Source of the DNA: a virus | DNA length: 64,000 nucleotides | Virus record (IMG/VR): IMGVR_UViG_3300044730_000222 | Location: 1 to 64,000 of that record | Reading direction: 5' to 3' (one strand) | In this document: positions 14,801 to 51,567 of the stretch, one piece after another | Layout of the letters: each line of letters starts with the position of its first letter | How positions within the stretch are numbered: the stretch's first letter is position 1 | Translations under genes and position numbers: made by a program | The notes under the pieces: generated by a model | The model's input: the letters and a program-made list of their open reading frames with translations, nothing else | Told to the model about the DNA's origin: nothing | The model's database searches: none

Positions 14801-15517
14801 GTGTTTTTTAAAAAATCAGAAAAGATAGAATTTATAAGTACCGTCGAAGGATTAGACGATATAGAGGAATGTAGGCCTAAGCCTGCTAAAAAATATATAC
14901 CAGAATGGTTTAAGCAAATGCCATCAAAAGATGGGATTCCAACTGTCAGGCAATGTCCTTCATTCCCCGATTTTTTTTCGCAAGGATATATTGTTCCTAT
15001 GTGGGTTGATTCTAAAATTTGCTATAATCCAGAATTACAAACATGGGAATGGTTAAATGCTACTGAAGCCTATAGGTGGGAAGTACATCAAAATTCACAA
15101 ATGATAGATCATGTAAAACCAAATTTTAATGGCATTGATGGACAGTTTATTTTTAAAGCACTTTGCCCATGGAGAGTTATAACTCCTCCTGGATGGTCTG
15201 TTTTACAACTACCGCTTTTTTATCACTTTAATCAAAAATGGTCTATATTGCCAGGAGTTATAGATACTGATATACACAATCAAATAAATCAGCAGGTGCT
15301 GTATCATGGAAATGGAATGGAAGTAGATATTAAACGTGGAGAACCATTTGCTTTATATATACCGTTTAAAAGAGATAGTAAACTTGATCTGACTGTAAGA
15401 CACTGGAATGAAGATGATAAAAGTTTTTTTCATAAAAGAGAACTTAATATAGCATCTAAATTTATTGGCAGTGGTGTTTATAGACAAGTACAAAGGTTAA
15501 GAGATAAAAATGAGTGA
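14801..15517 (+). CDS. DUF6065-like protein (paralogue 1 of 5)
   Basis: CP.F.D...GY, W...TPPGWS, PGVIDTD and RGEP...IP.KR motifs. Confidence 0.6.
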   Translation: MFFKKSEKIEFISTVEGLDDIEECRPKPAKKYIPEWFKQMPSKDGIPTVRQCPSFPDFFSQGYIVPMWVDSKICYNPELQTWEWLNATEAYRWEVHQNSQMIDHVKPNFNGIDGQFIFKALCPWRVITPPGWSVLQLPLFYHFNQKWSILPGVIDTDIHNQINQQVLYHGNGMEVDIKRGEPFALYIPFKRDSKLDLTVRHWNEDDKSFFHKRELNIASKFIGSGVYRQVQRLRDKNE

Positions 15518-19148: not shown

Positions 19149-19403
19149 ATGACTAACTATAAAGACTTTCCATTCACAACTAACGGCGTGAATTTTATTT
19201 CAAGAGTTTATTCTGACTCTCCATTTCTATCCACTATTGAGCGCCTGCCTGAAGGTGCATTTGCCTCACTAAATATTCAAGCACTAACAGAATTAGTGGG
19301 TGACGCTTCACTTCTAACTCATGATGAATTACTAATAGCACTAACTAAAATAAATGATGGTGGAACTCATGCGTTTATTCTACTAGATGAGGGGTCTAAC
19401 TAA
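19149..19403 (+). CDS. Early hypothetical protein
   Basis: ORF track; operon context. Confidence 0.7.
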   Translation: MTNYKDFPFTTNGVNFISRVYSDSPFLSTIERLPEGAFASLNIQALTELVGDASLLTHDELLIALTKINDGGTHAFILLDEGSN

Positions 19404-22448: not shown

Positions 22449-22513
22449 GGGTAGAGTGGATAAAACAATATTATTCTTCATGGGCTTATGGATATTTATG
22501 TATCTATTTACCT

Positions 22514-22529
22514 TGTGATTAATATCACA
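22514..22529. promoter_or_regulatory. CRP box
   Basis: TGTGA-ttaata-TCACA upstream of TTGACA-N17-CATAAT. Confidence 0.75.
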
Positions 22530-22639
22530 AAGAATAAATCTCAAAATGTGAGATTTTTTAGATTTGGATTTGACAATAAATCTCAAAAATGTCATAATTA
22601 GACAGTAAGCAAAAACAACTAACGAAAGGAAATAAAGAA

Positions 22640-22804
22640 ATGGCAGTAAATACAGCACTATACAAGGTAGGCGATACTTATACTTCTCAGAAGTCTAAGA
22701 TTACAGGCTCTATCAAAGAAATCGTGCCAAACCCAAATGGTTCGGTTCGTGTCAAACTTGATGTTGAAGGCAAGACACGCTGGACAACTTGGAAAGCAAA
22801 GTAA
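22640..22804 (+). CDS. Early small protein, paralogue of 23404..23571
   Basis: YKVGDTYTSQKSKITG vs YRVGDLFTTSKTGITG; GAAAGGA RBS. Confidence 0.7.
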   Translation: MAVNTALYKVGDTYTSQKSKITGSIKEIVPNPNGSVRVKLDVEGKTRWTTWKAK

Positions 22805-22820
22805 TTCCTAATACAGGAAA

Positions 22821-22850
22821 AGACCTGAGCAAGTCTGCTAAAACTGCTCA
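22821..22850 (+). ncRNA. Small H-type pseudoknot motif, copy 1
   Basis: AGAC-CTGAGCAA-GTCT-GCTAAAAC-TGCTCA. Confidence 0.7.
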
Positions 22851-22907
22851 ACTTGATTTTCTATCATAGAAATGCTAAGATAGAACCCCATACAGAAAGG
22901 AAAACAA

Positions 22908-23330
22908 ATGGCTAGAAATGGCAAAAGTATAAATGTCAAGATTGCTACAACTAAAGTAATCAAGGCACTTGAAACTAAATTGGCTCAACTCCAAAAGGAT
23001 AAGGCTAATCAGAAAGTAAATGAGGAAAAGTTGCTGAAGGCACAAGAGAAGTATAATAAGGAAGTTGCTAAGTTAGCACTTGCTCAAATCTCTAAGGCAA
23101 CAGACTTATCTGCTAATGTTCGCTGGAACGGCGAAGTAAATGTTGATTTCAATTTACCAAAAGGTTCTATTGAATTACCTGAAATGCCTGAGAAAGATTT
23201 TGAGTCTTTCAATGATTGGCAATACAAGGAAATGGTAGATGAAATTGAAAACGCTATCCGTATCCTAAAGATGACAGATGAGGAAGTAGTTTCTACTTCT
23301 ACTTACAACACTATCGCAAGATACTTGTAA
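22908..23330 (+). CDS. Early coiled-coil protein
   Basis: ORF track; AGAAAGGA RBS. Confidence 0.75.
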   Translation: MARNGKSINVKIATTKVIKALETKLAQLQKDKANQKVNEEKLLKAQEKYNKEVAKLALAQISKATDLSANVRWNGEVNVDFNLPKGSIELPEMPEKDFESFNDWQYKEMVDEIENAIRILKMTDEEVVSTSTYNTIARYL

Positions 23331-23403
23331 TTCTATGGGGGAAGGGTATTTGACTTCCCCCCTAAAAAATGTTAAACTTGATTATCACAGAAAGGATAAA
23401 CAA

Positions 23404-23571
23404 ATGACCCTTGGAGGCTATACTTACAGAGTAGGCGATTTATTCACTACTTCCAAAACAGGTATTACAGGTCGCATTGAAAAGTTTGTGCCACAAACTA
23501 GAAATGTCACTAAGGTAATGCTACGCTTAGCAAATAACCAAACAAGATTTGCTATGGTAAAAACTTACTAA
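23404..23571 (+). CDS. Early small protein
   Basis: AGAAAGGA RBS before ATG 23404; TTGACT-N17-TAAACT promoter. Confidence 0.7.
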   Translation: MTLGGYTYRVGDLFTTSKTGITGRIEKFVPQTRNVTKVMLRLANNQTRFAMVKTY

Positions 23572-23576
23572 TAGAA

Positions 23577-23702
23577 TTGTGGCGGGTTTGAACTGTGTAA
23601 TCATCTAGATTCCCGCCACAACTTTTCTCTCCTGCGTTCATGGCAGATCTATCTGCGAAAGTCCCCTGGAGAGATTGTCCTGAGTATGACAATAAACTGC
23701 TC
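23577..23702 (+). ncRNA. Structured intergenic RNA ending in pseudoknot copy 2
   Basis: TTGTGGCGGG/CCCGCCACAA and TCTCTCC/GGAGAGA stems, then ATTGTC-CTGAGTAT-GACAAT-AAAC-TGCTC. Confidence 0.65.
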
Positions 23703-23734
23703 TTTAAAAATACCGCAAAAAATCGGGAGGCCCC

Positions 23735-23750
23735 TGTGATTATTCTCACA
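23735..23750. promoter_or_regulatory. CRP box
   Basis: TGTGA-ttattc-TCACA. Confidence 0.75.
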
Positions 23751-23845
23751 TGGCTGCGACACGCCGATATTTATTTACGAAGGAATTTGTATTTTTCCCA
23801 TATTTCTGCTAAACTTAATAGATAACCAACAGAAAGGAACGCCCC

Positions 23846-24127
23846 ATGATAGCAACCGCTATTAAATTACAAGAAGCATCAAGAGATGCAGTTCATGATG
23901 ACATGATAATGGAAATTGTCAAACACATTGTCAGTATTAGAGATGTAGTAGATGAAGAAAGTTTTATCAAAGAGATGTATAACTATTCCGCTATGCTCTC
24001 TGCTATGACAACAACTCTAGTTACTCACGCATTATTGACAGAGGAACAAATAAATGATATGCTGGAAGCCATTAAAGAAATGGATACAGTAGGAGAGGAA
24101 CTCTTAAATGAATACAGAAACAACTAA
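23846..24127 (+). CDS. Early hypothetical protein
   Basis: ORF track; AGAAAGGA RBS. Confidence 0.7.
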   Translation: MIATAIKLQEASRDAVHDDMIMEIVKHIVSIRDVVDEESFIKEMYNYSAMLSAMTTTLVTHALLTEEQINDMLEAIKEMDTVGEELLNEYRNN

Positions 24128-24572
24128 TGAAATAGTAGTGCCAGCACACTACAACCCTAATCAAATCGTAACCTATAAGATTATTGATTCTGAAGCACAC
24201 CAAGCAGACTATGCGAATTGGTATCCCACAGTAAAGGTTAGCGACCTTGAATATGAATTACACCAACACCGCAGAGAAAGACGGGAACTTAATAGATATA
24301 CTCAGCATGTAGGTATGTTAGAAAGTCGCCTACCTGATTACCTTGATATGGATTCAGAGGAAATCGTTGCTGATATTTGTAGTATCTTTGGATTTAATCC
24401 TACTAAGGAAATTCAATTTGAGGCTACCGCCACAATTACAGGAACAATATCAGTTCCGTTAGATGAAGTTGCTAACTTTGATGTTAGTGATATTGACTTA
24501 AATGTTTATGCTGAACTAAGTTCATATGACGGAGAAGCAGATGTTGAGATAGATAATATCTATAAAGTGTGA
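24108..24572 (+). CDS. Early acidic hypothetical protein
   Basis: ORF track. Confidence 0.7.
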   Translation: MNTETTNEIVVPAHYNPNQIVTYKIIDSEAHQADYANWYPTVKVSDLEYELHQHRRERRELNRYTQHVGMLESRLPDYLDMDSEEIVADICSIFGFNPTKEIQFEATATITGTISVPLDEVANFDVSDIDLNVYAELSSYDGEADVEIDNIYKV

Positions 24573-24587
24573 TAGTGGGGCTATCCA

Positions 24588-24615
24588 AGATCCTGGGCAT
24601 GATTTAAAACTGCCC
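24588..24615 (+). ncRNA. Pseudoknot motif, copy 3 (compensatory GGGCA/TGCCC)
   Basis: AGATC-CTGGGCAT-GATTT-AAAAC-TGCCC. Confidence 0.7.
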
Positions 24616-24753
24616 CTCGCAAAATTGCGGACCTCCCGCAAATTTTTTATTTTGTCAAATTTACGGCGTGTCGGGACAAATGATTAACAGGACTTGCTTT
24701 TATTAATCTTATATGTTAAACTTGAGATTCATAACTAATGAAAGGAAATAAAA

Positions 24754-25770
24754 ATGGCTCATGAATTAGAAACGCAAAATGGCGTTGCTTCTTTTGCTTC
24801 TTTTAGAGAACCTGCTTGGCACGGCTTAGGCACAGTTTTCACAGAAGAAAAAACAACAAGCGAAATGCTTGCTGCTGCTAATCTAAATAATTGGAATGTT
24901 AGATTGGTTGATGTTGAGATTCCAAACACTCTTACCTCAGACAAGAATTATTCTTATGTCGTAAGGACTAACCCTACTGAGAATAATCAGACAGATATTC
25001 TTGGTGTTGTAGGTGAGCGTTATCATGTTTTACAGAATGAAGATTTATTTTCATTCGGTGATAATATCCTAGATGGCGGTGGGCGTTGGGAAACTGCTGG
25101 CTCAATTCGTGGTGGGCGTGTAGTATTCGGCTCTCTTGCTCTTGAGCGTGAAACAGTATTAGACCCTAATGGTGTTGCGGATAAAGTAAAGACTTATTTA
25201 CTTATCAACACAAGCCACGATGGCTCAATTGCTATTCAAGCGTCAATAACACCCGTTCGTGTTGTATGCGCTAACACTCTCAATCTTGCTCTTGGTTCTA
25301 AGCGTGGCAAAAATGCTATCAAGCAATCATTCAAGATTCGTCATACACAGACCGCTAATGGCAAGGTTGCTATTGCTCGTGAGGCTCTTGGTCTTGCTAA
25401 TAAGTATATGGACGCTTTTGATATTATGGCTAAGGCTATGATTGAAAAAGAAATTACAGCGCAACAGTTCAATGATATTGTTCTCGCTGCTTATCCTAAG
25501 CCTGAGAAAGACGCTAAGGGCGCAATCAAAAAGTGGGAAAATAAAATTGATGTTATCAATGATATTTACACAGGGCAATTTAATGGAATGATTGCTAACA
25601 CCGCTTGGGGCGCTTTCAATGCTCTAACTGAACGCCTTGATTGGCACAGAAATGCTCGTGGTGGTTCTAACGAATCCCTACTCGCTGCTGCTAGTGGTTT
25701 TGACGCAACAATTACCGCAGAAAAAAATCGTCTGCTAAGTGTTGTAAAAAATACTTTAGAATTAGTTTAA
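24754..25770 (+). CDS. DUF932 (phage/plasmid-like, TIGR03299-type) protein
   Basis: REPAWHGLG, WETAGS, NTSHDGS, TPVRVVCANTL and TAWGAFNALTE motifs. Confidence 0.85.
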   Translation: MAHELETQNGVASFASFREPAWHGLGTVFTEEKTTSEMLAAANLNNWNVRLVDVEIPNTLTSDKNYSYVVRTNPTENNQTDILGVVGERYHVLQNEDLFSFGDNILDGGGRWETAGSIRGGRVVFGSLALERETVLDPNGVADKVKTYLLINTSHDGSIAIQASITPVRVVCANTLNLALGSKRGKNAIKQSFKIRHTQTANGKVAIAREALGLANKYMDAFDIMAKAMIEKEITAQQFNDIVLAAYPKPEKDAKGAIKKWENKIDVINDIYTGQFNGMIANTAWGAFNALTERLDWHRNARGGSNESLLAAASGFDATITAEKNRLLSVVKNTLELV

Positions 25771-25779
25771 TCTAATTCA

Positions 25780-25807
25780 ACTCCTGAGTAAGAGTATAAA
25801 CTGCTCA
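25780..25807 (+). ncRNA. Pseudoknot motif, copy 4
   Basis: ACTC-CTGAGTAA-GAGT-ATAAAC-TGCTCA followed by a T-tract. Confidence 0.7.
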
Positions 25808-25889
25808 ATTTTTTTTTGTAAAAAAATCCCGTGATCATAAATTAAAATTTGCAATTAAAAAAATGCGGACCTCCTTATAGGGAGGCCCC

Positions 25890-25905
25890 TGTGACCTACA
25901 TCACA
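25890..25905. promoter_or_regulatory. CRP box
   Basis: TGTGA-cctaca-TCACA. Confidence 0.75.
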
Positions 25906-25988
25906 AAATGAAAAATAGTATAACATTTCTTAAAATTTTCTATTACGAAGGATTTGATTTTTCCCCAGTTTTTTGCTAAAATTTATCT

Positions 25989-26207
25989 ATGACCCTAAAT
26001 GTAGAAATATATGAAATGGAATATTCTGTATCCCCTGGTGGAGTTGACTGCTGGGAAATGACTATTGGGAATAAATGCTATTCAGGTTTTAAAACTGCTG
26101 GACATGCATTGGACCACTTGCTAATTATGCACCCTTCTGATACCCTTGACTTATCAGTAACTTCACTTAATGTTTATTATAAAGAACTAGAAAGGATCCA
26201 ATGTTAG
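25989..26207 (+). CDS. Hypothetical protein
   Basis: ORF track; leaderless after TGCTAAAAT. Confidence 0.65.
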   Translation: MTLNVEIYEMEYSVSPGGVDCWEMTIGNKCYSGFKTAGHALDHLLIMHPSDTLDLSVTSLNVYYKELERIQC

Positions 26208-26362
26208 GATATACAGAAGAACAAATAAACAAAATGATGACTACTCTTAACTATACTATTCATCATCATATGACTGGTGTATTTGCAGATGAGGATAGAG
26301 CAGTGCTAAAAGATCTAGAGGACTTCTTAGAGGGATTAATTGCAGAAGGGCATGTGAGGTAA
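26201..26362 (+). CDS. Small hypothetical protein (MLGYTEEQ...EGLIAEGHV)
   Basis: Manual translation; AGAAAGGA RBS. Confidence 0.65.
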   Translation: MLGYTEEQINKMMTTLNYTIHHHMTGVFADEDRAVLKDLEDFLEGLIAEGHVR

Positions 26363-26368
26363 ATCACA
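26353..26368. promoter_or_regulatory. CRP box
   Basis: TGTGA-ggtaaa-TCACA upstream of TTGACA. Confidence 0.75.
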
Positions 26369-26531
26369 TTACGAAGACTTGACAAAGTCCCACATTTTTG
26401 AGAAAATTGGATTAAGAACAGAAAGGAAAAAATCGTGGAACACCAACACTACTGGGACACACCCAACACGACACAACTAGACCTAGTCGCACAATGCGCC
26501 TGCGGTGAAGAACTATTGAGGGAGACGGATA

Positions 26532-27254
26532 ATGCCTAACTGGTGTTATAACACTCTTTCTATAGAAGGTAAGCCTGAACTCATTGCGGATGTTAAGCGT
26601 ATGCTTAATAGACCATTTAAGAAATCTCATGATTCATGGAACATGGCTACAGGACAAATGGAAGTATCAGAAACCGCATACTCTAATCCTGTTTTTGCTT
26701 TTCATAATATATATAATCATATTCAGGACGGTGTCTCTGATGAGGAGTATCTAAAGCAACCTGACCATAGCCTACCATTAGAAGAATCTCTTATGTTCAA
26801 AGGCAACCATTGGTATGACTGGAATGTAAGAAACTGGGGAACCAAATGGGATGTAGCAATTAGACATGGTGAGGAGTATCCTGAGACTGAGTTAATGGAA
26901 GAAGATGAGACTTCTCTTTCATACCGTTTTAATACCGCTTGGTCTCCACCAGTGCCTGCTATTATCAAACTATCTGAACAGTATCCTGACTTAGATTTTA
27001 ATCTATACTATCAAGAAGAAACTGGTTGGGGTGGAGAAACAGAATTCAAAAATGGTTTTATTACTAATAGTGAAGAGTATGAGACTAAGTGTATGGATTG
27101 TGATTCATTAGATACCCTTGAATATTGTGACAATGATTGTGGTCAGATTTGTTCAGAGTGTAACTATATGGGCGAAGCAGACCTTGACCAAGTTGCGGAA
27201 TGTGAAGACCACAAGATATACTTAGACAACGTTCCTGAATACAGAAAGGTATGA
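26532..27254 (+). CDS. DUF1281/YubB ferredoxin-like fold protein
   Basis: MPNWCYN, WYDWNVRNWGTKW, F.TAWSPP motifs; Cys-rich tail. Confidence 0.8.
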   Translation: MPNWCYNTLSIEGKPELIADVKRMLNRPFKKSHDSWNMATGQMEVSETAYSNPVFAFHNIYNHIQDGVSDEEYLKQPDHSLPLEESLMFKGNHWYDWNVRNWGTKWDVAIRHGEEYPETELMEEDETSLSYRFNTAWSPPVPAIIKLSEQYPDLDFNLYYQEETGWGGETEFKNGFITNSEEYETKCMDCDSLDTLEYCDNDCGQICSECNYMGEADLDQVAECEDHKIYLDNVPEYRKV

Positions 27255-27255
27255 A

Positions 27256-27474
27256 ATGGAATCAGAATACATCAATAGAAAAGTTAAACTAATAGAATAT
27301 ACCAAACTACATGTTATTAGTTTAGAACAGGATTTGGAACAAATATCTATTGAAATGGAAGCATTAGATATGAACTCTAAAGATTGGGATGAGTTAGATT
27401 TTGAATATAATCATATGGGAGGACAGATTCTTTCTGCCCGTCATCTTTTACAAGTTATGGAGGAAATGCTCTAA
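27256..27474 (+). CDS. Small acidic helical protein
   Basis: ORF track; resembles the next gene (GQI/GQL). Confidence 0.65.
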   Translation: MESEYINRKVKLIEYTKLHVISLEQDLEQISIEMEALDMNSKDWDELDFEYNHMGGQILSARHLLQVMEEML

Positions 27475-27728
27475 TGGAAGAATATCTGCAGAAACAGGTA
27501 GACATGGGTAGTTCTGGTTTAGATATCATGCATGGGCACCTCAAAGTTCTAATGCTAGAGGCTGAACAAGAACTGGCGGAGGCACAAGCAATCGAAGATG
27601 AATCAGAAGAGGCTATGGATTCTATGGAGCGTAAGTATTGGGAAGGCCAATTAGACGCACTTGCTAATCTATATAGTTTGACATATGACTTGTCATTTGC
27701 CATTGCAGCCAAGGAGGCAGCAAAATGA
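27474..27728 (+). CDS. Small acidic helical protein
   Basis: ORF track; TAATG coupling. Confidence 0.65.
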   Translation: MEEYLQKQVDMGSSGLDIMHGHLKVLMLEAEQELAEAQAIEDESEEAMDSMERKYWEGQLDALANLYSLTYDLSFAIAAKEAAK

Positions 27729-28021
27729 AACTATATCAAATAGAACTAATTCATGAGGCTACAGGTGAGTACATGAATTTTGAATATACATCAGACGCAA
27801 AAAGCGATGACGCTGTCTGTTCTGAGATTCTGTCAGATCTATCTGTAGTTATTCTAAGTAAAGAGGATTTGACAGAGGAAGAGGAATTTGATACTATTAA
27901 AGCAAACCAACTACAGAAAGGTAGTGAAATGCAACACGAACATTATTGGGATACACCGTCAGACAAGTCACTCGTAGCAGAGTGTGCCTGTGGAGAACAA
28001 CTAGAAAGGGTTCAAGATTAA
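27725..28021 (+). CDS. Hypothetical protein, possibly with an internal start at 27929
   Basis: Internal TTGACA promoter and AGAAAGG RBS precede MQHEHYW. Confidence 0.55.
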   Translation: MKLYQIELIHEATGEYMNFEYTSDAKSDDAVCSEILSDLSVVILSKEDLTEEEEFDTIKANQLQKGSEMQHEHYWDTPSDKSLVAECACGEQLERVQD

Positions 28022-28383
28022 TGGGTGCCCGCTGTAACTTTGTATTTAAACAATCAGATAACTATGCTGTGGCTTTGTACAGTCACTGGGATGAAGACAA
28101 CATGTATGAACTACTTGCTGCAGCCCTAGACCATGCACGTCCACGTCTACAAATGGGAGACATTCCATATGCGACTCGTATGGCCATTAGTTATATTATT
28201 AAAGATTCTATTTTGGATGAGACTGGTTACGGTATTACTGCCATGGACCCGTCAGACCAAGGATTCTTAGACCATCCAATCACAATCGACCTAACAGATA
28301 TGACTGTGGGCAGTGGTGAGGATTGGCACACTATTGAAGATTTTATTAAATATCATTCAATACAACTGGTTAAACAATCTTAA
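28021..28383 (+). CDS. Conserved phage hypothetical protein (MGAR...LYSHW...ETGYGI)
   Basis: Start moved to ATG 28021. Confidence 0.7.
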   Translation: MGARCNFVFKQSDNYAVALYSHWDEDNMYELLAAALDHARPRLQMGDIPYATRMAISYIIKDSILDETGYGITAMDPSDQGFLDHPITIDLTDMTVGSGEDWHTIEDFIKYHSIQLVKQS

Positions 28384-28505
28384 CTGAGGGCCTAGCGTGG
28401 TGAACTAGGCTGAATGCGTGGGGTGGGTCCCTCACGTGATATAAGGGTAGAGCGCAGGTGTGGGGCTTGCGCTCTCCCAACATCTTTGATACAATGAGGA
28501 GGAAT

Positions 28506-28742
28506 ATGTCAAGATACTCAATCCGTAAGCCTGCGGTAACTAAAGAACAACAAGTAGCCAAGAAAGTCGCAAGGGCATTAACAGAAGATTTTAATAGCGA
28601 CTTAGAAGGAGTTGGCTACTCTATTAGTGCTGACCATGCGCCTATTATTTTTCACAGACTAGAAACAATGTATTTGGCTTCTAAAGATGAACATGATAGA
28701 ATTATGGGTAGAGAAGTAGAAACGGAAGGTTTTGGCAGATGA
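28506..28742 (+). CDS. Hypothetical protein
   Basis: GAGGAGG RBS before ATG 28506. Confidence 0.65.
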   Translation: MSRYSIRKPAVTKEQQVAKKVARALTEDFNSDLEGVGYSISADHAPIIFHRLETMYLASKDEHDRIMGREVETEGFGR

Positions 28743-29023
28743 TAGAGTTTGCGAACAAATGCGGTATCCTAGGAGAAGTCTGGATTAATTATAAGGATGA
28801 TAAGCAATTCGGAGACTTTATAGAATACAATGATTTAGGACTGCCCCTGGCATACATGATAGCCGAGGGTCTAATAAAAGAAATAACTCCTCTAGGAGAA
28901 CAATACATAGATGAAACCTTTACTTTGTTTATTGCTGGTTTAGAAATAAATGAAAATGAAGTAGATGAAGAAATGAATTTAGCAGACTTATTAGACTATG
29001 TAGAAAAGAAAAAGAAGAAATAG
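28739..29023 (+). CDS. Hypothetical protein (FIEYNDLGLPLAY)
   Basis: ORF track. Confidence 0.7.
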   Translation: MIEFANKCGILGEVWINYKDDKQFGDFIEYNDLGLPLAYMIAEGLIKEITPLGEQYIDETFTLFIAGLEINENEVDEEMNLADLLDYVEKKKKK

Positions 29024-29029
29024 ATTATT

Positions 29030-29700
29030 TGATATCGGGACCTCCGTATAGGGAGGACCCCATATTCAAACCATAAAACCTTTCAAACCATATTTTTTAA
29101 AAGACATTACGAACAAATCTAAAAAAATCCCAGAAGTTTATCAAATAAATTTTTATTTGTCAAATCAGATCTATATCCTATAGGTAGTATATGTAGTATG
29201 ATATGTTTTTTTGTATACCCCGCCGCAGGCGTGTCTGTTAATTTAGATAGACATTACGAACCGCCTCAAAGTCCCCCCCTCTGAACGGCCCGTAAAAGCG
29301 GCGGTATAAAAAACATTACGAACACCCTATATCTTTCCCCATATATACAAACCATATATACATTACGAAGGACATATATTTTTTCCTGGATTTTTAGAAT
29401 ATTTCCCATATGTTTTATAACTTTTTGTTATACTTTTCCACAGTTTTGGACAGGTTTTATAACATTTCTATATCAAATATTGAGACAATTTTGTCCATAT
29501 TGTGGATATAAATAGGTTTGACAATATGAATTTTATATGGTATAGGGTTTGGGAACTGGGTTGGTTTGAACTGCCAGTATTACGAACGCACTCTAGAAAG
29601 TGCTCCATTCCCCACTTTCCTCCATTTTCCTCCACCTATTTCCTATGATATTTATATCAGTAAGATTTTTCTGTGGATAAACCTGTGGATAACTATACAA
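29030..29700. promoter_or_regulatory. Non-coding control region with five (C/T)ATTACGAA repeats and DnaA boxes
   Basis: Repeats at 29105, 29252, 29314, 29361 and 29578; TGTGGATAA at 29672 and 29684; TTTTCCACA at 29434. Confidence 0.75.
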
Positions 29701-29728
29701 ATTTGCCTATATCTGCTATACTTTTTAC

Positions 29729-29944
29729 ATGCCTAGTCAACATACAAAATGGTTTAAAGATGATCGCCTTGTAAAGGCTCTAGATGATATGCGCCAACGC
29801 AATATGGAATTTATGTCCAAGTGTTATTATTGTGGCGCAGAAGCGGTAGCCATAAAATCTATAGGTGAAAGACTATATCCAGCCTGTGATATTCATCCAG
29901 GAGTAGATGAAGTTATTCAATCAGAATCTTTCTTTAAAGACTAA
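29729..29944 (+). CDS. Small Zn-binding protein
   Basis: CYYC...C..H; leaderless. Confidence 0.6.
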   Translation: MPSQHTKWFKDDRLVKALDDMRQRNMEFMSKCYYCGAEAVAIKSIGERLYPACDIHPGVDEVIQSESFFKD

Positions 29945-30156
29945 TTTTTAGGCGGTATACCCAAAGGCATATCCGTAACATTATCAAATGCCTCTTCACA
30001 TAATGGGCAATAGGAATTAGGCAATCTTCCACTTCTTAAAGTTGATCCACCCAATAATATCAAACCTGCTTCACTTAAATCCAAGGTCTTCTGGCTTACT
30101 ACTCCATAGACTATAGGTATTAGTTTTGTCTTACATCTAGTACATATACTACTCAT
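29941..30156 (-). CDS. Small Zn-ribbon protein (C..C...IPIVYG...LGG...C..C)
   Basis: ORF track; near-leaderless TGCTATACT promoter. Confidence 0.65.
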   Translation of the reverse strand: MSSICTRCKTKLIPIVYGVVSQKTLDLSEAGLILLGGSTLRSGRLPNSYCPLCEEAFDNVTDMPLGIPPKN

Positions 30157-30214
30157 ATAGGGTTAGTATAGCAGTTCTTGGTATACCGTGGTATTTTTTG
30201 ATATACCCCTTGAT

Positions 30215-30243
30215 TTGCATACTTGCCCATAGTTGTGTATAAT
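30215..30243 (+). promoter_or_regulatory. Sigma-A-type promoter of the sRNA
   Basis: TTGCAT-N17-TATAAT. Confidence 0.75.
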
Positions 30244-30250
30244 TGGATAT

Positions 30251-30358
30251 AGAAGGGCCTAGAAACCCTTCTCTCCCCTCCCTTTCTGGGGGAGCAAGTC
30301 GTCCCTCCCTTTCTGGGGATGCGCTCCTGAGCATGAGCGATAAACTGCTCATCTTTTT
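30251..30358 (+). ncRNA. Putative anti-Shine-Dalgarno sRNA: three hairpins (two CCCUUUCU loops), 3' pseudoknot copy 5, U-tract
   Basis: Promoter directly upstream; stems read from the sequence; no credible ORF. Confidence 0.7.
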
Positions 30359-30692
30359 ATTGTATAATGCCTTAATGCATTTACATAGATATTTAACAAA
30401 AGAACTAGGTAATAAGATCATATATTATTGCCAAAGATGTGGATGGGAAAAAGTAGTTGACATACCGCCCCCTACATGGGATAATTGAGGTATGAAACTA
30501 ACTAATGAATATATCAAGACAGAACTTATTAAGATCAATGAGTTATTAATATCAGGCTCTCTTCATGATGTAGATGAGGCTAGTCATATATCAGCAAGGT
30601 TAATAGGGGAACTTAGTTCTTCTTGACATACCGCCGACTTTCTGATACACTGAAAGCACGTGGATTATATATCGTAGAAAAGTGAGAATAAC

Positions 30693-51420: not shown

Positions 51421-51492
51421 AGCCTCCTATAGGATTTGAACCTATGACAACCCGCTTACAAGGCGGGTACTCTACCCCTGAGTTAAGGAGGC
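51421..51492 (-). tRNA. tRNA-Thr(UGU)
   Basis: GCCTCCT/AGGAGGC acceptor stem; CCCGC-CTTGTAA-GCGGG anticodon arm; GGTTCAAAT T-loop; no encoded CCA. Confidence 0.92.
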
Positions 51493-51496
51493 AAAG

Positions 51497-51567
51497 AGCG
51501 GATAGCGAGAATTGAACTCGCACATTAACCTTGGCAAGGTTACGAACTACCACTATGCAATATCCGC
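51497..51567 (-). tRNA. tRNA-Gly(GCC)
   Basis: GCGGATA/TATCCGC acceptor stem; TAACC-TTGCCAA-GGTTA anticodon arm; GTTCAAT T-loop. Confidence 0.9.

Follow-up and report, generated by a model that had tools for sequence, protein, structure and literature searches.

The window analysed here, the first 64,000 nucleotides of the IMG/VR virus record IMGVR_UViG_3300044730_000222, carries five copies of a small H-type pseudoknot at or near the ends of genes and in non-coding stretches. All five had been predicted from the sequence, and all are present on the plus strand at the positions given in Table 1. Copy 1 starts 16 nt past the stop codon of a 54-aa ORF (22640–22804) and adjoins a small hairpin (22806–22820), with a weak promoter-like TTGATT-17-TAAGAT on its 3′ side. 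Copy 2 lies inside the 274-nt spacer after the ORF at 23335–23571, about 60 nt beyond a hairpin with a T-rich tail, and its P1 helix could extend to 6 bp. Copy 3 starts 15 nt past the stop of the ORF at 24108–24572 and is followed, 9 nt downstream, by a canonical terminator (24625–24641 plus a T-run). Copy 4 starts 9 nt past the stop of a DUF932 gene (24754–25770) and is directly followed by nine Ts (25809–25817); in related phages, a tRNA-Asp occupies this following position in place of the T-run. Copy 5, with a T-run at 30354–30358 behind it, closes a promoter-driven, hairpin-rich non-coding stretch beginning near 30215, and its P2 3′ strand could alternatively take part in a plain hairpin (30333–30352).

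Table 1. Pseudoknot copies in the window, with helix positions and covariance-model E values.
Copy	Position	Strand	P1 (5′ strand/3′ strand)	P2 3′ strand	E
1	22821–22850	+	22821–22824/22833–22836 (AGAC/GUCU)	22845–22849	1.2e-11
2	23674–23703	+	23674–23679/23688–23693	23698–23702	6.1e-11
3	24588–24616	+	24588–24592/24601–24605	24611–24615	1.3e-8
4	25780–25817 including T-run (knot 25780–25807)	+	25780–25783/25792–25795	25802–25806	4.3e-11
5	30322–30358 including T-run (knot 30322–30351)	+	30322–30326/30335–30339	30346–30350	2.6e-9

The original prediction placed the motif on the sense strand, at the ends of genes or sRNAs, and the window copies bear this out. The statement that each copy directly follows a hairpin applies to about four of the five, and the family as a whole shows no enrichment of upstream structure. 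Likewise, the U-tracts after copies 4 and 5 and the canonical terminator behind copy 3 agree with a location at transcript 3′ ends, the ends themselves being putative. The 3′ half of the motif (AAAC plus UGCYC) occurs five times on the plus strand versus 1.0 expected, a count reached in none of 100 shuffles. Across the whole 101,845-bp phage genome, both a regex scan and the covariance model return these five copies only, with model E values of 1e-11 to 1e-8 and a next best match at 0.27.

The motif is 27 to 29 nt long, with the consensus nnnC-CUGRGYAW-Gnnn-nnAAAC-UGCYC-A. P1 comprises 3 to 6 bp of free sequence and an almost invariant closing C–G pair (C7–G16, present in 129 of 137 sequences among the matches listed and in 81 of 82 model matches beyond the search pattern). 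Its loop, CUGRGYAW, has a G at position 3 and contributes the 5′ strand of P2, GAGCA, which pairs with UGCUC and may gain an extra U–A pair; the U preceding the P2 G is invariant. L1 measures 1 to 2 nt, a one-nucleotide junction separates the helices, and the A-rich L3 has an invariant AAAC at its 3′ end, giving about 20 near-invariant nucleotides in all, unpaired ones included. As had been proposed, P1 pairs in all five window copies with five different sequences, and copy 3 carries the compensatory change in P2 (GGGCA with UGCCC). Among the matches listed, 96.7% of cells are paired versus 80% in shuffles (0 of 500 shuffles reach the observed value). Three P1 pairs display all Watson–Crick types, and in model matches outside the search pattern P2 shows double compensatory changes at four of five pairs and zero unpaired cells. 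The small repeats are hereby confirmed as a real, covarying and strongly conserved H-type RNA pseudoknot. A DNA-level reading is ruled out by the motif's strand specificity, by its G–U pairs, and by the compensatory changes that both interlocked helices show.

The motif had been described as belonging to no known family, and Rfam 15, its riboswitch, ribozyme, GP20-a/b, and PK-motif models included, indeed contains no match over it, either at gathering score or at E ≤ 10; a search of loci L018, L094, and L098 against Rfam at E ≤ 1 likewise gave no match over the motif. Membership in GP20-a/b was considered and rejected, as the leaders of Lactobacillus phage scaffold (GP20) genes bear the knot yet fail those models. 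A full-text literature search, which included the motif's own letters, found no description of it, and nothing recognisable as the motif appears in the main text of the 10,006-motif IMG/VR survey (PMC10690425) or in the main text of the 224-motif paper.

Exact-core matches number at least 145 in at least 120 IMG/VR loci; the copy statistics below (n = 127–142) refer to motif copies among the matches listed. Cultured Lactobacillus phages carry the knot too, among them phi jlb1 of Lactobacillus gasseri ADH at 19168–19201 of NC_024206.1, as do Planktothrix phage PaV-LD at 15222–15255 and some bacterial contigs, and the hosts come from many phyla. Far from being special to this phage, the family is very widespread among a great many unrelated phages. 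Pattern matches in bacterial genomes are mostly chance hits, with P1 present in about 20 to 30 of 123. A family of bacterial mini-ORFs that end in or at the knot matches no family in Pfam or NCBIfam. No copy was found in Streptomyces phage Riptide, which represents the nearest cultured clade by TerL and DUF932, in cyanophage P-SS2, or in SPO1; a match in T5 lies inside a gene and is a false positive. Megablast of the region against cultured phages gave no match.

Among the matches listed, the distance from stop codon to invariant C has a sharp minimum of 8 nt, with 16 copies at that value and none at 6 or 7, and the first P1 pair therefore begins 4 to 6 nt after the stop. By the established geometry of the ribosomal helicase, a structure 4 to 6 nt past the stop escapes unwinding by a ribosome on the stop codon. 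The listed copies near an upstream stop only number 32 and those near a downstream start only number 7, a gene-end context that points to a tie with the upstream gene. The genes upstream of listed knots encode DUF932 (16) and Hsp20 (7) proteins, major head protein, RecT, RNR, and many unknowns. These unrelated genes, together with the tRNAs and sRNA ends that also form its context, make up no coherent regulon, and the motif is not tied to any particular gene.

The 3′ side is equally patterned. A U-tract follows the knot directly in 27 of 139 listed copies (19%), starting 1 to 3 nt from the last P2 pair and including window copies 4 and 5, versus 0 to 4 of 139 (≈2%) at control offsets; it is absent from this position in the other 81%. 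A tRNA starts 4 to 13 nt downstream in 12 of 142 listed copies, with a 13th at 33 nt; in none of the 142 do the 60 nt upstream contain a tRNA. Type III hammerheads occur 0 to 6 nt downstream in loci L020 and L003 and, among the matches listed, never just upstream. The 30 nt downstream of knots are less structured than elsewhere.

With U-tracts, tRNAs, and hammerheads just downstream, the knot would end up 3′-terminal wherever its fate can be read. Of the five functions that the original prediction put forward, these context statistics favour a 3′-end cap or exonuclease block and, for about one fifth of copies, also a non-canonical terminator, and lend little support to a ribozyme or a processing signal. 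We regard it as close to an even call, falling just short, that the knot is a self-contained roadblock, capping mRNA 3′ ends and in some cases doubling as the terminator structure. In phages it would serve as all-purpose punctuation after genes. Whether a 3′ end is made beyond the knot by termination, by RNase P cutting at a tRNA, by a hammerhead, or by an endonuclease, 3′-to-5′ exonucleases would trim back to the knot, a protein-independent mechanical obstacle retained at the end of the upstream RNA, and halt there, sparing the coding region. Where a U-tract adjoins the knot, as at copies 4 and 5, the knot probably also forms the structured part of an intrinsic terminator. Window copies 3, 4, and 5, at or beside T-runs or a terminator, support the cap.

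Several observations count against it. PNPase or RNase II is blocked by any stable hairpin, so a 3′ cap alone leaves the near-invariant nucleotides, conserved across many phyla, unexplained. About 30% of listed copies have a Shine–Dalgarno sequence and start codon within 55 nt and no visible route to a 3′ end, and in Lactobacillus phages the knot, which stands after a canonical terminator and ahead of the scaffold gene, is placed more like a 5′ leader element. The bacterial mini-ORFs run into the knot, which ribosomes have to unfold at those sites. Moreover, its closest analogue, the coremin motif of eukaryotic viruses, blocks a 5′-to-3′ exonuclease and ribosomes, not 3′ exonucleases. A bolder reading, which we put somewhat below even odds, is that phages and some bacteria possess a prokaryotic counterpart of xrRNAs, a 27-nt triplex-type knot convergent with or related to coremin that on its own stops bacterial exonucleases and perhaps ribosomes, doubles as a pseudoknot-based intrinsic terminator where a U-tract follows, and sets message boundaries and lifetimes in polycistronic phage transcripts.

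The positional data bear on two other roadblocks. The knot might instead act as an xrRNA-like 5′ stabiliser, blocking RNase J, a 5′-to-3′ enzyme, as it arrives from the upstream cistron, and so protecting downstream RNA, or even as a two-way roadblock. RNase J is present in the probable hosts (actinobacteria, cyanobacteria, and Firmicutes), 44 of 127 listed copies stand 20 to 39 nt ahead of a start codon, and the Lactobacillus scaffold-gene leader would suit such a role. So would the resemblance to coremin and its Watson–Crick variant (C–G closing pair, A-rich linker ending in AAAC, GAG/CUC in S2), which stall Xrn1 and ribosomes (PMC6546385, PMC10520033, PMC10321173). However, U-tract copies leave no downstream RNA to protect, tRNAs and hammerheads 3′ of the knot would sever it from what follows, no listed copy follows a tRNA, and the 32-to-7 asymmetry favours the upstream gene; the hairpin hp2 on which coremin's Xrn1 resistance depends is not enriched either, a hairpin starting 0 to 6 nt past the knot in 17 of 139 listed copies (12%) versus 19 to 35 of about 135 (14–25%) at control offsets. 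On balance we consider a 5′ stabiliser unlikely. Somewhat more doubtful is a ribosome barrier or insulator, in which the knot, sitting at the mRNA entrance while the A site holds the stop codon, would halt post-termination sliding, either uncoupling neighbouring cistrons or shielding tRNA, ribozyme, and terminator structures from ribosomes. The 8-nt minimum after stop codons fits, as do the mini-ORFs and the fact that coremin stalls scanning ribosomes and stimulates frameshifting, but any element that needs to stay folded predicts that minimum equally well. In about a quarter of listed copies the nearest ORF end is more than 100 nt away, and neither copy 2 nor copy 5 of the window follows an ORF. 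Slippery heptamers, moreover, are not enriched (8 of 139 listed copies versus 3 to 5 in shifted controls) and are mostly A-runs after a stop, and a frameshift signal is ruled out.

The conserved nucleotides themselves invite three further readings. Their number, with some unpaired as in aptamers, and a topology like that of the preQ1-I and SAM-II aptamers could indicate a site bound specifically by a universal host factor, a phage protein, or a small molecule, tuning termination, processing, or decay; the direct U-tract in 19% of listed copies would suit a ligand-controlled terminator. Rfam gives no riboswitch match even at E ≤ 10, though, the contexts form no coherent regulon, and the many-phyla host range argues against a phage-specific protein, all of which makes the idea improbable. 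A mimic of the tRNA acceptor, read by RNase P (or by RNase Z or the CCA enzyme), would take P2 as the acceptor stem, with U at −1, G1:C72, and A73 then CC. The invariant U before P2 is as required, P2 is followed by A in 71%, ACC in 18%, and ACCA in 11% (15 of 142) of listed copies, far above chance, and the TYMV acceptor pseudoknot has the same H-type topology. Yet CC is missing in most copies, including all five in the window, the A can simply extend P2 by pairing with the invariant U, U-tract copies do not fit, and the P1 plus P2 stack is 9 to 10 bp with no T-loop equivalent, versus a 12-bp coaxial stack with a T-loop; we think this very improbable. Least credible of all is a very small self-cleaving ribozyme that would cut polycistronic phage RNA at gene boundaries. 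It could account for the highly conserved, pseudoknotted core, hammerheads adjoin some knots, and phages tend to carry ribozyme classes in clusters, but a hammerhead 0 to 6 nt away would be redundant, Rfam gives no ribozyme match, and 27 to 29 nt is, to our knowledge, far below any natural self-cleaving class.

If the knot proves to be a roadblock that needs no protein, bacteria and their viruses would have their first described xrRNA-like element, and phages one of their most widespread small structured RNAs. The knot would explain how phages give neighbouring genes on one transcript different stabilities, mark transcript boundaries for the annotation of uncultured phage genomes, and provide synthetic biologists with an mRNA stabiliser or insulator of 27 nt that does not depend on the host.

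Known elements resemble the knot in part. The preQ1-I aptamer (RF00522) shares its size of about 30 nt and a hairpin followed by an A-rich tail that pairs, at its end, with the loop, but differs in its conserved nucleotides, in the lack of any covariance-model match at E ≤ 10, and in the absence of queuosine-related genes from the knot's context. Intrinsic terminators likewise place a structure before a U-tract, as 27 of 139 listed copies do; here, however, the structure is a pseudoknot and not a GC-rich hairpin, most listed copies have no U-tract, and tRNAs 4 to 13 nt downstream need read-through. Luteoviruses and enamoviruses use −1 frameshift pseudoknots such as that of BWYV, at 28 nt. The phage knot matches this type in size, H-type plan, 1- to 2-nt L1, one-nucleotide junction, A-rich L3 over a short S1, and position 5 to 9 nt downstream of the A-site codon (PMC10321173), yet has a stop codon upstream in place of a slippery heptamer, no overlapping ORF, and many copies far from ORFs.

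By comparison of features, the closest known analogue is coremin (xrRNA_C), which together with its Watson–Crick variant (xrRNA_WCC) is found in beny-, cucumo-, and many other eukaryotic RNA viruses (PMC6546385, PMC10520033, PMC10321173), although two defining coremin features do not hold here. The coremin loop has the consensus YGAD or YGNNAD with G at position 2, whereas the phage loop has 8 nt with G at position 3, and coremin loops with an extra 5′ C are Xrn1-sensitive (PMC10520033). Coremin S2 has 2 to 3 Watson–Crick pairs and the phage knot 5 to 6; coremin needs hp2, of at least 4 bp and directly downstream, for Xrn1 resistance; and the phage knot belongs to DNA phages, in a context that suggests protection of upstream, not downstream, RNA. 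Both nonetheless have a tiny size and sites in UTRs or intergenic regions, a short first hairpin of free sequence with a C–G closing pair (3 to 5 bp in coremin hp1, 3 to 6 bp in phage P1), a loop running from pyrimidine/G at its start to A-D at its end, and an A-rich linker of about 6 to 7 nt ending in AAAC, behind which the 3′ nucleotides pair with the loop. With GAG/CUC shared between the phage knot and the Watson–Crick variant, the resemblance raises the question of whether these RNA elements of phages and eukaryotic viruses arose by convergence or from a shared origin.

Reading the sequence at 22500-26100 and 30000-30600, we found the five H-type pseudoknots of the original prediction (hereafter knots, with stems P1 and P2 and loops L1 and L3) exactly as described and all on the + strand. 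The P1 sequence is unlike in every copy yet paired in each, and the compensatory change claimed for P2 is carried by copy 3. The small hairpins said to precede the knots do adjoin four of these five copies, but they are not a trait of the knot family as a whole. On its + strand, the window contains five instances of the 3′ half of the knot (AAAC plus an adjoining UGCYC) versus 1.0 expected, and 0 of 100 shuffles reach five. Scans of the full 101,845-bp record with a regular expression and a covariance model returned the same five copies (E 1e-11 to 1e-8) and no sixth, the next best match having an E value of 0.27. This record is a single IMG/VR phage genome of 37% G+C, rated 94% complete, whose large terminase and DUF932 protein are ≈53% identical to their counterparts in Streptomyces BE-cluster phages. 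This similarity and the low G+C content fit an uncultured phage whose putative hosts are low-G+C freshwater actinobacteria. Five relatives of ≈100 kb carry three to eight knots each, mostly grouped in the early region.

Knots and associated features (window coordinates for copies 1-5 and the 14-nt word; L numbers are loci bearing knot or pattern matches, with coordinates within each locus)
Feature	Position	Setting
Copy 1	starts 22821	16 nt behind 54-aa ORF; then weak promoter-like site
Copy 2	starts 23674	within 274-nt spacer, ~60 nt past hairpin with T-rich tail; then spacer
Copy 3	starts 24588	15 nt behind ORF 24108-24572; canonical terminator 9 nt downstream
Copy 4	starts 25780	9 nt behind DUF932 gene; nine T directly after; tRNA-Asp at same place in relatives
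Copy 5	starts 30322	closes promoter-driven, hairpin-rich non-coding stretch; then T-run
14-nt G+C-rich word	23726-23739 and 25881-25894 (+)	25-75 nt downstream of copies 2 and 4
Lactobacillus phage phi jlb1, Lj771, AQ113 knots	L250:1207-1240 (NC_024206.1 19168-19201), L251:1203-1236, L252:1202-1235	
Planktothrix phage PaV-LD knot	L258, NC_016564.1 15222-15255	variant with compensated first P2 pair
Mini-ORF + knot	L150:999-1073 (+); also L155, L187, L222, L229, L241, L148	
Type III hammerheads	L020:955-1012, L003:13778-13836	start 0 and 6 nt downstream of knot
A/G sub-variant	L040:3672-3705, L076:1974-2007, L005:11345-11378, L066:2947, L089:4529	

Several further features surround the window copies. 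Owing to a resemblance between the P1 3′ strand and the P2 5′ strand of copy 5, two folds are open to its P2 3′ strand: the pseudoknot, or a simple terminator hairpin of 7 bp (30333-30352, +) ahead of the T-run. A weaker form of this ambiguity exists in copy 4. The 14-nt word is present in two exact copies (0.09 matches expected by chance) and continues into a TGTGA-N6-TCACA box, and the terminator after copy 3 is a related GCGGACCTCC hairpin. Two neighboring tRNA genes (51421-51567, -; 69 and 58 bits) lie well away from the knots, unlike in related phages, where a cluster of tRNAs begins right behind the knot of the DUF932 gene.

An exact-core pattern that fixed most of P2 but did not demand P1 pairing gave at least 145 matches in at least 120 IMG/VR loci, and among the matches listed, P1 is paired in 134 of 137 aligned copies. 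Pairing covers 96.7% of cells in the resulting alignment (A1) versus 80.3% in shuffles (0/500). The four Watson-Crick types all occur at the three variable P1 pairs, and when the partners are shifted by 1-3 columns, pairing falls to 25-44%. Because the pattern had fixed most of P2, we built a covariance model with P1 only (R1) and collected matches outside the pattern into a second alignment (A2, 83 sequences). Here, both partners vary in four of the five P2 pairs, at columns 10-83 (GC 73, AU 2, GU 2), 11-82 (AU 71, GC 7, GU 1), 12-81 (GC 77, AU 2), and 13-80 (CG 63, UG 13, UA 3), with no unpaired cell at these four; double changes occur at 8 pairs versus 4.2 in shuffles (0/500). Given covariation of P1 and P2 in A1 and A2, the pseudoknot fold is well supported.

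P1 comprises 3-6 bp, mostly 4, with an almost invariant closing C-G pair; L1 is C or CU; and P2 pairs GAGCA with UGCUC, where an invariant U ahead of P2 and an A after it (71% among the matches listed) could add a sixth pair. The stem junction consists of a single nucleotide, mostly A or U but sometimes C, and L3 usually has six, ending in the invariant AAAC. Additional hairpins are tolerated within the knot loop and L3 (L075, L077, L083). A recurrent sub-variant changes the last L3 nucleotide from C to A and the first P2 3′ nucleotide from U to G, turning the A-U pair beside the junction into an A/G opposition. G is scarce in the first 8-10 nt behind the knot, and the next 30 nt show less structure than other regions.

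The knot is real and widespread. R1 matches three Lactobacillus phages, in which the knot lies between a terminator hairpin and the GP20-family head-scaffold gene, with a further conserved stretch of ≈45 nt before the start codon; such knots in cultured phages make bench tests possible. T5, SPO1, P-SS2, and Streptomyces phage Riptide yielded no true copy. Pattern matches in a bacterial genome collection are mostly chance, with ≈20-30 real ones (Calothrix, Saccharibacteria, Alistipes, Flavobacteriaceae, Eubacteriales, Chloroflexi, and Desulfobacterales). At seven of these, in Desulfobacterales, Aminicenantes, and related MAGs, a promoter-driven mini-ORF enters the knot or stops at it, in some copies with a UGA stop codon within the knot loop. 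This ORF of 20-30 codons is preceded by a strong SD, is conserved in its N-terminal half (M-K-R-F-x-I-P-R-x-A-H-C-x-x-G-C), and matched no family in Pfam or NCBIfam; its neighbors at L150, the one locus examined for them, are chromosomal (panC, alr).

The knot also obeys position rules. Among the matches listed, a same-strand ORF ends within 400 nt upstream in 126 of 139 copies, and only 8 of 139 lie within a sense ORF; 32 copies are near an upstream stop only versus 7 near a downstream start only. The genes ahead are diverse, including DUF932 (16) and Hsp20 (7) among the matches listed, as well as major head, RecT, ribonucleotide reductase, transglycosylase, and many unknowns. Distances between stop codon and invariant C break off abruptly at 8 nt, as at a wall (among the listed cases, 16 have a distance of exactly 8 and one of 5, with none of 6-7), which places the first P1 pair 4-6 nt behind the stop. 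Given the established location of mRNA entrance and helicase on the ribosome (about +11 to +13, counted from the P site), no structure can lie nearer to a stop codon and remain folded under a terminating ribosome. Downstream, a U-tract begins within 3 nt in 27/139 listed copies versus 0-4/139 at twelve control offsets. A tRNA gene, mostly tRNA-Asp and usually first in a cluster, begins 4-13 nt downstream in 12 of 142 listed copies (a 13th at 33 nt), and none lies within 60 nt upstream (0/142). Full-length type III hammerheads follow two knots (32-33 bits, E ≈1e-5, below the Rfam gathering score of 48.5); L006 probably has one too.

Where its fate is legible from sequence, the knot would come to lie 3′-terminally on the upstream RNA, standing before a U-tract, an RNase P site, or a hammerhead cut. 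Because of this, and because the spacing rule ties the knot to the upstream stop, we tentatively favor a self-contained 3′ cap that would halt 3′-to-5′ exonucleases and, with a U-tract, would supply the terminator structure. What the data show is the fold, the position rules, and the neighbors of the knot, whereas its nuclease resistance and its role in termination are inferred. The main weakness of the 3′ cap is that a plain hairpin could serve equally, so ≈20 near-invariant nucleotides across phages of many phyla ask for more: possibly a mechanically rigid triplex fold, by analogy with luteoviral and coremin knots, or a universal partner.

Foremost among the rivals is an xrRNA-like block to 5′-to-3′ decay by RNase J, or a roadblock in both directions, which we consider unlikely. 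A barrier against post-termination ribosomes seems slightly less probable again, and a protein or ligand binding site ranks just below it. That the knot is an RNase P or tRNA-like signal is improbable; what points to it is solely that ACC(A) is enriched behind P2, where it stands in 11-18% of the matches listed. A mini-ribozyme is the least probable.

As far as searches can show, the knot, which the original prediction could not assign to a known family, is without prior description in Rfam 15, which has no matching entry, or the full-text literature searched. The present analysis adds the covariation of four P2 pairs, the wall 8 nt behind stop codons, the asymmetric placement of U-tracts and of tRNAs and hammerheads, and a failed test for hp2, the second hairpin of coremin (xrRNA_C of eukaryotic RNA viruses). 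Luteoviral frameshift knots of the BWYV type have the same plan, but a frameshift signal was rejected because the phage knots lack slippery sites. PreQ1-I aptamers share the topology, and their covariance model gave no match to the knot. The closest analogue is coremin, above all its Watson-Crick variant: both have a free-sequence 3-5-bp hairpin with a C-G loop-closing pair, a pyrimidine-G...A-D loop, an A-rich linker ending in AAAC, and linker-to-loop pairing with GAG/CUC. However, G occupies loop position 3 in the knot and position 2 in coremin, where loops of the position-3-G type are inactive in assays (PMC10520033), and hp2, obligatory in coremin, is not enriched after the knot (12% versus 14-25% in controls, among the matches listed). 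With both of these defining features failing, we rejected coremin membership; by analogy, the phage knot may nonetheless act like coremin.
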